Below are positions 334-6,811 of a stretch of DNA of 13,925 nt, one piece after another. Each line of letters opens with the position of its first letter. The stretch's first letter is position 1. The notes below the pieces were generated by a model. The model made no database searches. It was given only the letters and a program-made list of their open reading frames with translations, and had not been told where the DNA came from. The position numbers and the translations under genes are program-made. This DNA is from a virus. The DNA lies in the IMG/VR virus record IMGVR_UViG_3300027824_000187; one strand, written 5' to 3'.

Positions 334-779
334 TGTTTTTGGAAAGTGTCAAAATAGGTCGGGTAAGGATCGCCGGGTATCTCGGTCACACGCTCTATCA
401 TTTGGTGGAAGCGCGGAGGGCAATCGGCATCGGTGTACTTGCGATCTCGTTGATGAGTTTGTTCTCGGTCGGTGCGGCTCGCGGTGTGCGAACGTTTCTC
501 AACTGGGAAGCCCAGTCTCCTATTGCAAAGGACGCTTGGGTGGTTGAAAACACTCACGCTGAGGCTCGTGATCTGGTAGTCCGACGCGGTACCACGCATC
601 TCCGGCTGCACTGCACAGGTGACATCGAGTGGAGTGACTACTGGAAGCATCTGGATCACGGCTATGGTTGTCTCCCGGTGAAAGAGGGTCAGGAAATTCT
701 CTTGGAACATTGGGACAACGACTACGTGCTCAAGTTGGATAAGGGGCAGGAGAACACCTACCATGAAGGTAGCTGGTGA
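333..779 (+). CDS. Hypothetical protein. The start is uncertain, with alternatives ATG 291 or GTG 540.
   Basis: ATG 333 overlaps the upstream stop (TGATG). The C-terminal half (GDIEWSDYWKHLDHGYGCLPVKEGQEILLEHWDNDYVLKLDKGQ) looks coding. The N-terminal half has weak codon bias. AAAGGA lies 7 nt before GTG 540. Confidence 0.45.
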   Translation: MFLESVKIGRVRIAGYLGHTLYHLVEARRAIGIGVLAISLMSLFSVGAARGVRTFLNWEAQSPIAKDAWVVENTHAEARDLVVRRGTTHLRLHCTGDIEWSDYWKHLDHGYGCLPVKEGQEILLEHWDNDYVLKLDKGQENTYHEGSW

Positions 780-1111
780 CTCGCGTAGTTCACGTCCGTA
801 AAGCAGAATTCGACATCTACATCGGGCGGGCGATCAAAGAGTTTGCTGAGTCGCCTTGGCACAACCCTTTTCACATTGAGTACGGCTGCGGACGAGACTG
901 CGTGCTGGAGAAATACGAAGTGCATGTCCGTAACAGCCCGGAACTGATGGCGCGTCTGGGCGAGCTTCGCAACAAGACGCTGGGTTGCTGGTGCAAAGAC
1001 AAACACGGCGCGGGGAAGAAATGCCACGGGGATGTCCTCGTGAAGTTAGTGAGAGAGGTTTATGCTGATCCTGAAGATGCGGTGCAGCAAGCACCCAAAC
1101 TACAAAGCTAA
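776..1111 (+). CDS. DUF4326-family protein, a widespread small phage/plasmid domain.
   Basis: GTG 776 overlaps the previous stop (GTGA). Motifs: YIGR near the N-terminus, NPF, and LGCWCKDKHGAGKKCHGDVLVKL, which matches the DUF4326 signature (GCWC...CHGDVL) as I recall it. Confidence 0.7.
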   Translation: MTRVVHVRKAEFDIYIGRAIKEFAESPWHNPFHIEYGCGRDCVLEKYEVHVRNSPELMARLGELRNKTLGCWCKDKHGAGKKCHGDVLVKLVREVYADPEDAVQQAPKLQS

Positions 1112-5825: not shown

Positions 5826-6036
5826 GGAAGCCTACAGCAAGCTGGCGGAAGTCTACCACCTGCTCGACGATTTGATGAAAGAGCTTTCCAGCCGGGAAGA
5901 CTTCGCCGGATACCTCTTGGCGCAGGACGCCCGGCAGATGATCTTCGGTTCTGGTGTAGGGACTGATGCGTTAACCAAGCTGGGCGCGATAGCCAGCTTA
6001 GGTGAGCGGAGTAAAGGTGAAAAGGAGAAGTCATGA
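5791..6036 (+). CDS. Hypothetical 81-aa protein. The start is uncertain (GTG 5791 or ATG 5875).
   Basis: It overlaps the previous gene by 35 nt, out of frame. The stop TGA overlaps the next ATG (ATGA). The segment KKAKEAYSKLAEVYHLLDDLMKEL looks protein-like. Confidence 0.4.
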   Translation: MPVRAATRKKAKEAYSKLAEVYHLLDDLMKELSSREDFAGYLLAQDARQMIFGSGVGTDALTKLGAIASLGERSKGEKEKS

Positions 6037-6413
6037 AACTACGACACGTTGATGGATTTGTTGTCCTGATCGTTCTGTTTCTGCTCGTGACCGCGATGTT
6101 CTCTCACGCGCAAGCTGTTGGCTCCAGCGTCCAGCCCGTTACCGGGCCGACTTATTCGGTGCCTGACCATCCGCAGCACGCCAGCTACACCCCGATGCGT
6201 ACTGAAACCAGTTTGCTTGGCTCTACGGTGACCGTGGCGCAGGGCGAACGTCCGTTGTCGGACTTCCCCTCTGACCAGCCGTATGTGACGCCACTGGGTG
6301 ACGTGGCGCGAGAATACCGCGAGATGAAGTTCGCCACGCGAGGGCACTCCGGCTCCGGTCGCGCCCCGCAGTACAGCCATATCTATTGGGAGCAGCAAGG
6401 CAGCAGCAAGTAG
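6033..6413 (+). CDS. Secreted protein (126 aa) with a classical signal peptide.
   Basis: AAAGGAGAAG SD. N-terminus MKLRHVDGFVVLIVLFLLVTAMFSHAQA|VGSS, with an AxA cleavage motif. Confidence 0.6.
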   Translation: MKLRHVDGFVVLIVLFLLVTAMFSHAQAVGSSVQPVTGPTYSVPDHPQHASYTPMRTETSLLGSTVTVAQGERPLSDFPSDQPYVTPLGDVAREYREMKFATRGHSGSGRAPQYSHIYWEQQGSSK

Positions 6414-6449
6414 TTCGGAGTTCAAAATTTGCAGTAACAGGAGAGCATT

Positions 6450-6779
6450 ATGTGCGGTGGAACAGAACGTGATTATCGGCAAGAGCGCGAACAGGAGCGC
6501 TTGAACGAGCAGCGCCGGGAGAACGAACGGCTGGCTGCGCAACGGCGCACTCGCGCCCTCAAGGCGGCTAAGACCCGCAAAGCAAATGCCCTGATTGCCA
6601 AGCGCCGGGCAACTGCATTGAAAGCAGTTCGCACCCGACGTCGCAATGCGGCGGCAAAGGTGAAGTCGCCCAAGACACTCACGGTGATCTTGAATCCGAC
6701 AATCCAGACATCTCCTGCTATCCCCCGCAGGAAAATGGCGCTCACGCCTATGAAGGCGCGTTCGCTGCGGATGAACTAA
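6450..6779 (+). CDS. Highly basic Lys/Arg/Ala-repeat protein (109 aa), a candidate histone-H1/AlgP-like DNA-binding protein.
   Basis: ACAGGAGAG SD. ER-rich N-terminal coiled-coil, followed by two tandem ~20-aa basic repeats (RRTRALKAAKTRKANALIAK / RRATALKAVRTRRRNAAAK). Confidence 0.55.
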   Translation: MCGGTERDYRQEREQERLNEQRRENERLAAQRRTRALKAAKTRKANALIAKRRATALKAVRTRRRNAAAKVKSPKTLTVILNPTIQTSPAIPRRKMALTPMKARSLRMN

Positions 6780-6811
6780 GAGGGAAATTCAATCAGCGGT
6801 AGGACAACACT

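Follow-up and report, generated by a model that had tools for sequence, protein, structure and literature searches.

Homing endonucleases carry modular basic DNA-binding tails, and in the NUMOD3 type (PF07460) these consist of short basic units that stand alone or in repeats at the termini of phage nucleases. Another kind of basic repeat, the KPAA-type proline-containing disordered repeat, marks the tails of AlgP, PhaF, and certain H1 variants and has been implicated in DNA and/or RNA binding (PMC12818456). Phage homologues of the major vault protein (MVP) have already been described as well (bioRxiv 10.1101/2023.11.10.566534). The subject of this study is a gene for a small basic protein of 109 amino acids (aa) in the IMG/VR virus record IMGVR_UViG_3300027824_000187, of which the whole stretch of 13,925 nucleotides (nt) analyzed here is referred to as the window. 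We regard the element as a phage because the neighboring genes match PHROGs. The protein contains two tandem copies of a 20-residue unit and, judged from sequence, these copies are instances of a basic helix module, widespread and apparently uncatalogued, which phages carry as stand-alone proteins, as tandem arrays in slightly larger proteins, and as single terminal appendages on enzymes. The 109-aa protein counts as a minor accessory product of one large-phage clade, and the interest lies mostly in the module.

An original prediction, made from the letters of the window alone, had proposed a diverged 60-nt tandem repeat at both the protein and the DNA levels; the protein-level part of this claim stood, and the DNA-level part did not. 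The best repeat phase places the copies at residues 30 to 49 and 50 to 69 (Table 1), where 11 of 20 residues are identical in an ungapped alignment with a Smith-Waterman score of 49, a score that was equalled in 44 of 2000 shuffles of the central basic segment. Self-alignment of the whole protein scores 80, which was equalled in 2 of 500 segment-wise shuffles. The peptides quoted in the original prediction are present in the protein as residues 32 to 51 and 52 to 70 (nt 6543 to 6602 and 6603 to 6659), the first of the two intervals given for them being about 8 nt off. We compared the repeat with compositional bias by means of a 20-column hidden Markov model (HMM) of the unit, built from 21 units drawn solely from unrelated proteins, in a comparison that is not fully independent of the family (see below). 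This unit HMM matched copy 1 at residues 30 to 47 (13.2 bits) and copy 2 at residues 50 to 69 (16.1 bits), while the central segment, when shuffled 1000 times, gave a best match of at most 10.2 bits and a second-best of at most 4.6 bits, such that 0 of 1000 shuffles matched as the protein does. The two-copy protein repeat exceeds compositional expectation. The core threonines of the copies, T42 and T62, lie exactly 20 residues apart, and the cores read KAAKTRK and KAVRTRR, an A/V variant of the module without the flanking Trp/Glu of the KAWETRR form; the A/V variant is also present in P0006, P0033, and L005. No further match to the unit HMM was found in six-frame open reading frames (ORFs) of at least 40 aa from the window and from loci L001, L002, L007, L008, L047, and L048. 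Across the protein, self-identities number 20 at a 10-residue offset versus 19 at a 20-residue offset, which may reflect an internal half-period or the R/A composition.

At the DNA level, neither Tandem Repeats Finder nor a second repeat finder reported a tandem repeat between positions 6300 and 6900. The in-register nucleotide identity of the copies is 28/60, compared to 31.0 +/- 2.2 expected when the protein is held fixed and synonymous codons are resampled, and the same codon is used at 2 of the 11 identical residues, compared to 3.8 expected. In a per-codon comparison in the phase 32-51/52-71, third positions agree in 5 of 20 codons. The protein similarity of the copies is enough to account for their nucleotide identity and, therefore, either the duplication is old or the copies have been kept similar by function. 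A recent 60-nt tandem duplication was ruled out by the 28/60 identity, the codon mismatch, and the empty repeat searches.

The module has the consensus AKRxAAAxKA[A/W]xTR[R/K]xN or, more fully, AKR[S/V]AAA[K/L]KA[A/W][A/E]TR[R/K]xN. In a library-wide search (1.84 billion representatives), the profile of the protein family described below reached the multi-module proteins P0006 and P0007 at E values of 3-4e-5, solely via profile positions 34 to 66, and in a tblastn scan of metagenomes, residues 22 to 67 of the 109-aa protein were matched by a 98-aa four-module protein in L005 and L006. Both P0006 to P0009 and the 98-aa protein of L005 are tandem arrays in which successive threonines are very often exactly 20 residues apart; tandem copies with the 20-residue spacing were found in P0001, P0006, P0007, P0008, P0009, and the L005 98-aa protein. 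A search for homologues of P0007 returned three uninformative matches. With a double-module profile, a search among 5.8 billion retrieved 136 proteins at an E value of <= 10, about 37 with values below 1e-3, and all 136 are 28 to 70 aa long and made of two or three modules (for example P0010, MPRKTVSKRSQAAIKAAATRKANILFAKRSEAAKKAWETRRANAG). Three stand-alone module proteins that we looked up are encoded on phage-like contigs, where their neighbors include Phage_endo_I, a phage RNA-polymerase beta-like subunit, a single-stranded DNA-binding protein (SSB), and HNH. More than 100 stand-alone module proteins (P0010 to P0129; loci L049 to L053) carry no informative functional annotation.

When the double-module profile was applied to IMG/VR, it gave 413 pattern stretches of which 0 were confirmed by tblastn, probably owing to the short query, and an exact DNA pattern scan for KKAWETRR was used in its place. 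This pattern was found in 37 IMG/VR loci and, in proteins of at least 90 aa, is almost always located no more than about 50 residues from one of the two ends. A Pfam scan of 20 KKAWETRR carriers gave a confident domain in 11, and 9 of these 11 are DNA-acting: four GIY-YIG proteins (two with NUMOD3), two HNH_3 proteins, one DNA_pol3_delta2/AAA clamp loader, one topoisomerase IB core, and one protein with NUMOD3 only. The proteins of L005 and L024 have the module as their sole shared part by BLASTP, at opposite termini (N-terminal in one and C-terminal in the other); a by-eye impression that they also share a catalytic domain was withdrawn, given that BLASTP shows the module alone. The topoisomerase carrier is an approximately 1100-aa phage protein (L014, 2961 to end; L020, 4191 to 7703) with a eukaryotic-type topoisomerase IB core (Topoisom_I, 4.9e-21), and it contains four to five scattered copies of SSEGAKKAW[E/L]TR[K/R][Y/F]GGSH.

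No family was matched in Pfam, NCBIfam, and PHROGs scans of the 109-aa protein or in Pfam, NCBIfam, and/or PHROGs scans of its family members and the module-only proteins. For the 109-aa protein, Pfam gave matches below the cut-off only (OmpH, E = 0.0016, 19 bits versus a cut-off of 32.4 bits), and NCBIfam gave nothing meaningful. The searchable literature held no printed instance of the module motif strings, and nothing similar was found in the literature on small basic phage nucleoid proteins. If the module binds DNA or RNA, many "hypothetical" small phage proteins would gain an annotation, module binding would explain part of how homing nucleases hold their substrate, and the module could be put to use in engineering as a binding helix that is compact and can be repeated.

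The reading we favor, to which we assign a probability of roughly 0.45, is that this small phage accessory protein serves as an adaptor that binds nucleic acid, more probably DNA than RNA. Residues 4 to 72 would form, or fold upon binding into, one long alpha-helix. The first third of this helix, which is E/R/Q-rich, variable in length, and close to zero in net charge, would serve as a soluble spacer, and the last 40 helix residues (net +17, no hydrophobic face), with their two tandem modules, would grip the nucleic acid. The Thr, Arg, and Asn side chains of the modules, together with the surrounding Lys/Arg, may touch the nucleic acid, with the two module copies lying some 30 Angstrom apart along the helix. 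The disordered 37-residue tail could then be a docking peptide, through which a phage or host partner would be brought to the nucleic acid. A nucleic-acid-binding role had been suggested in the original prediction and is still the most reasonable reading, given the +17 helix and the modules at the termini of DNA-acting phage enzymes; the H1-like coating form in which it had been cast did not hold up.

The helix in this proposal comes from structure prediction. Using the six-sequence family alignment, AlphaFold2 predicts a single helix over residues 4 to 72, with a predicted local distance difference test (pLDDT) score of 92 to 95 for residues 11 to 60, followed by a disordered tail (pLDDT ~50). 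A three-module miniprotein modeled with a 25-sequence alignment was likewise predicted as one continuous helix (pLDDT 95). Residues 1 to 31 have a net charge of -1, and their large hydrophobics besides M1 are Y9, L18, and L28; residues 30 to 70 have a net charge of +17 and a hydrophobic moment of 0.08 at 100 degrees. Over residues 1 to 72, the large hydrophobics (M1, Y9, L18, L28, L37, L48, I49, L57, V60, and V71) fall at about every tenth position, and hydrophobic moments are low near 100 to 103 degrees. The predicted helix is neither a coiled coil nor an amphipathic membrane helix, because its hydrophobics recur about every 10 residues and its moment is near zero. The coiled-coil label that had been given to the N-terminus was therefore set aside, since a helix is predicted there but without a heptad seam. 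The cationic helix would be expected to need a polyanion partner in order to form.

Several points weigh against the adaptor reading. AlphaFold2 gives confident isolated helices for many charged sequences, and its prediction should be read cautiously. The association with DNA enzymes comes from 20 carriers of the W/E variant (KKAWETRR), 9 of which have no recognizable domain and 2 of which have domains without known DNA activity (HK97-gp10-like and DUF2637). At the W/E positions, the window copies carry A/V and K/R instead, and their scores of 13 to 16 bits are below those of canonical units. The unit HMM comparison is not fully independent, because the outside units were found partly via the family profile. 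When the PDB was searched by sequence, using either the family profile or P0007 as the query, the matches were at chance level only, with no characterized homologue. The partner of the tail is hypothetical, and RNA binding would fit the same facts.

This last point leads to a reading in which the T-R-R-x-N helix binds structured RNA as an arginine-rich helix and the tail recruits the transcription or translation machinery, which we consider unlikely. The protein studied here recalls lambdoid N-type regulators in size (about 109 aa) and in layout, its C-terminal part being largely disordered. It is R-rich (21 R versus 10 K), its basic segment is predicted to be helical and is non-amphipathic, and its gene belongs to a long run of small accessory genes that all point in one direction, all of which would suit an RNA binder; the K/A-rich repeats of PhaF, once assumed to bind DNA, were also recently shown to bind RNA (PMC12818456). 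However, no PHROG or Pfam antiterminator family was matched, and the basic motif is central (residues 30 to 69) and not N-terminal. The window contains no Rfam family at gathering thresholds and no tRNA, and no RNA target such as a boxB-like hairpin was identified, no dedicated hairpin search having been made. Where the module is fused to a recognizable partner, this is an enzyme acting on DNA and not on RNA, which argues against the RNA reading.

It is quite unlikely that the protein does not bind nucleic acid at all and is instead a single-alpha-helix spacer or has some other polyanion or an acidic protein as its ligand (a host factor, polyphosphate, and a membrane surface would be candidates). 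The N-terminal segment is ER/K-like, with nine i to i+3/i+4 opposite-charge pairs in residues 6 to 27 by hand count, the conserved tail and the invariant MCG start point to specific protein contacts, and AlgP associates with polyphosphate granules (PMC12818456). These features are set against the enrichment of the module on DNA-acting enzymes and the concentration of +17 within 41 residues that contain conserved Thr/Arg/Asn positions, both of which count against this reading.

The composition of the protein bears on a further reading, bulk coating of the H1/AlgP kind, in which many copies would cover and compact phage or host DNA nonspecifically. The 109 residues include 21 Arg, 10 Lys, and 17 Ala (isoelectric point of ~12, net charge +23), confirming the strongly basic character that had been proposed. 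The K/R content had been put at about 35%, and the measured value is 28.4% for the whole protein, reaching 41% only in residues 32 to 70. This very high positive charge and the abundance of Ala would suit a coating protein, and a weak module-like match, P0117 (E = 2.6), carries the source name "histone, partial." Comparison with the AlgP/H1-like KPAAK-repeat proteins nevertheless turned up zero KPAA motifs: all five prolines fall within residues 74 to 100, outside the basic repeat, leaving residues 1 to 73 proline-free, and the repeat region is R-rich and predicted to be helical and not disordered. Linker-histone models in Pfam and NCBIfam, like the other family models, were unmatched. In addition, the most conserved part of the protein is a specific, nonrepetitive tail, which a pure polycation would not need, and the family is limited to one phage clade. 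We consider bulk coating very unlikely, and the histone-H1-like label was abandoned.

The family consists of six members, the window protein and five relatives (P0001 to P0005) found in the library-wide search at E values from 1.6e-41 to 5.7e-09. All six share an M-C-G start, a variable-length E/R/Q-rich segment followed by a K/R/A-rich segment, and a conserved tail. The tail, with the family consensus TLTV[I/F]L..PAIPRRK..KAR.LRMN, is the most conserved block of both family alignments (A1 and A2). T62, R63, and N66 are invariant in the family (A2), and copy 2 is the module copy kept in all members. Two full modules are present in the window protein and P0001, and in the other members a single full module is accompanied by a degenerate half; at the copy-2 equivalent, the unit HMM scores 20 to 21 bits in P0002 to P0005 and 16.8 bits in P0001. 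The invariant Met-Cys-Gly together with the conserved disordered tail suggests a specific partner. An HMM of the tail, searched against all ORFs of seven loci, matched family members only and, given that no non-family ORF was matched, the idea that the tail is a shared targeting peptide was rejected for now. All members begin with Met-Cys-Gly without a signal peptide, and since the signal peptide is absent, this start is not a lipoprotein box.

The same flanking genes were found in three other metagenomic phage contigs, one of them 149,980 bp long (L008), giving four collinear contigs in total. Among these loci, the target gene is 39 to 50% identical, compared to 49 to 67% for the adjacent downstream gene. 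Family profile searches of IMG/VR and the GTDB genomes gave pattern matches of which none was confirmed as a relative, and the 109-aa protein had no tblastn match among 50,697 phage records (GenBank phages). The family is apparently confined to a few metagenomic phages, because these IMG/VR, GTDB, and GenBank phage searches confirmed no relative. The whole window had no megablast match in phage and plasmid collections.

The open reading frame proved to be a real plus-strand gene encoding a conserved 109-aa protein behind a good ribosome-binding site (Table 1). L001, L007, and L008 have a purine-rich GGAG/AGGAG block at the equivalent site, and the gene start, ATGTGCGG (6450 to 6461), is invariant at the DNA level across the four loci. 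AAGGCGCG, which contains the C-terminal Lys-Ala-Arg codons (window positions 6752 to 6795), is also invariant at the DNA level though the proteins are 39 to 50% identical, and TAAGAGGGAAAT, right behind the stop codon in the same interval, is largely conserved among the loci. The conservation of these two stretches could reflect a regulatory or translational-coupling element. The gene for the 126-aa protein upstream of the target (Table 1) is conserved beside it in L001, L007, and L008, and a DUF4326 domain is also encoded upstream of the family gene in L007 and L008.

Table 1. Features of the basic-protein gene and of neighboring genes in the window.
Feature	Positions	Strand	Basis and remarks
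Gene for basic 109-aa protein	6450..6779	+	ORF list and translation; stop codon 6777-6779
Shine-Dalgarno-like AGGAG	6439..6443	+	Direct sequence reading; ATG of the basic-protein gene 6 nt further
N-terminal M-C-G-G	6450..6461	+	M-C-G invariant in 6/6 family members (alignment A2)
E/R/Q-rich segment, predicted helical, nearly neutral (residues 5-29)	6462..6536	+	Length differs among family members (A2)
Basic module copy 1 (residues 30-49, AQRRTRALKAAKTRKANALI)	6537..6596	+	T-R-K-A-N core 6573-6587
Basic module copy 2 (residues 50-69, AKRRATALKAVRTRRRNAAA)	6597..6656	+	T-R-R-R-N core 6633-6647
Conserved C-terminal tail (residues 73-109, SPKTLTVILNPTIQTSPAIPRRKMALTPMKARSLRMN)	6666..6776	+	Predicted disordered; net charge +7
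Gene for DUF4326 protein	776..1111	+	Pfam 1.1e-20; phrog_464 4.6e-26
Gene for 126-aa protein upstream of the target	6033..6413	+	Sec-signal-like N-terminus MKLRHVDGFVVLIVLFLLVTAMFSHAQA (by eye)
Gene for 352-aa AAA+ ATPase	9470..10528	+	Pfam AAA 2e-10; phrog_7485 7e-20
Gene for 817-aa MVP homologue	10582..13035	+	Pfam MVP_shoulder 5.4e-26, Vault_3 1.2e-10
RlaP/nucleotidyltransferase-like gene	13286..13925	+	Runs off the window end; RlaP 1.4e-12; phrog_388 1.3e-35

A distance of 3.8 kb, with about ten genes, separates the target from the MVP-like gene downstream of it, and the original prediction had raised a cargo-packaging role on account of this vault-like neighbor. As a vault cargo or cargo adaptor, the protein would dock its tail inside the MVP-like shell while its basic helix carried nucleic acid in, and a conserved disordered C-terminal peptide is indeed the cargo-loading-signal format of other protein shells. 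Copies of the MVP homologue are 78% identical in L008 and 42% identical in the megaphage records LR756500, LR756501, and LR756503. The target and MVP genes occur in the same order in the window's phage and in L008, the two contigs of sufficient length for this comparison, yet this co-occurrence is not independent evidence because the contigs are collinear relatives, and it is confined to one collinear phage clade. About ten genes stand between the two, no family member and no module turned up in the 20 kb on either side of the MVP gene in LR756500 and LR756501, the tail is shared by no other ORF, and there is no similarity to known vault partners in Pfam. On these grounds, we consider a cargo role highly improbable and did not retain the packaging idea. 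The narrower proposal that the protein is the nucleic-acid loader of a phage vault, its C-terminal peptide docking in the MVP shell and its two-module helix bringing in DNA or RNA, has a slimmer chance still; if true, this phage clade would be a tractable prokaryotic model for nucleic-acid cargo acquisition by vault-like cages. The AAA+ ATPase gene is directly upstream of the MVP-like gene, and no AAA gene was called at the matching position in L008. The RlaP-like gene follows the MVP-like gene, an order also found in L002 and L008.

Turning back to the adaptor reading, the protein can be placed beside four kinds of described systems. It resembles an ER/K single alpha-helix (SAH) in its long predicted isolated E/R/K-rich helix without a hydrophobic seam, and it differs from an SAH in that charge is balanced solely in residues 5 to 29; the rest of the helix could not gain intrahelical salt-bridge stabilization because it is purely cationic (+17). 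The RNA-binding peptides of the arginine-rich motif (ARM) type, such as those of lambdoid N and HIV Rev, combine a short Arg-rich helix and Thr/Asn/Arg positions with an otherwise unstructured protein of about 100 aa. In contrast to these, the motif of the present protein is central and duplicated, and there is no match to the sequence family. With the tails of AlgP, PhaF, and H1, the protein shares a highly basic, Ala-rich, repetitive character. Those repeats are 4 residues long, proline-containing, K-rich, and predicted to be disordered, and they occur in approximately 9 to 30 copies, whereas the protein described here has two units that are 20 residues long, free of proline, R-rich, and predicted to be helical, and a unique conserved tail comes after them.

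The closest likeness is to NUMOD3. The model does not match the 109-aa protein at an E value of <= 0.1, and where NUMOD3 and the module occur adjacent to each other in nucleases (NUMOD3 at residues 190 to 205 and the module at 212 to 224 in L010; 177 to 200 and 145 to 155, respectively, in L044), the model leaves the module uncovered. The 109-aa protein is not a NUMOD3 member, because the model neither matches it nor covers the module in these nucleases. The module also differs in having a 20-residue consensus of its own and in forming tandem arrays as stand-alone miniproteins. Like NUMOD3, however, it is a short basic unit that occurs once or in several copies at phage nuclease termini, its KKAWETRR form stands directly beside NUMOD3 repeats in the same nuclease tails, and an E-T-R/K core can be recognized by eye in both. 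Collectively, these features suggest that, in its way of working, the protein would come closest to the basic, modular tails with which homing endonucleases of the NUMOD type bind DNA.

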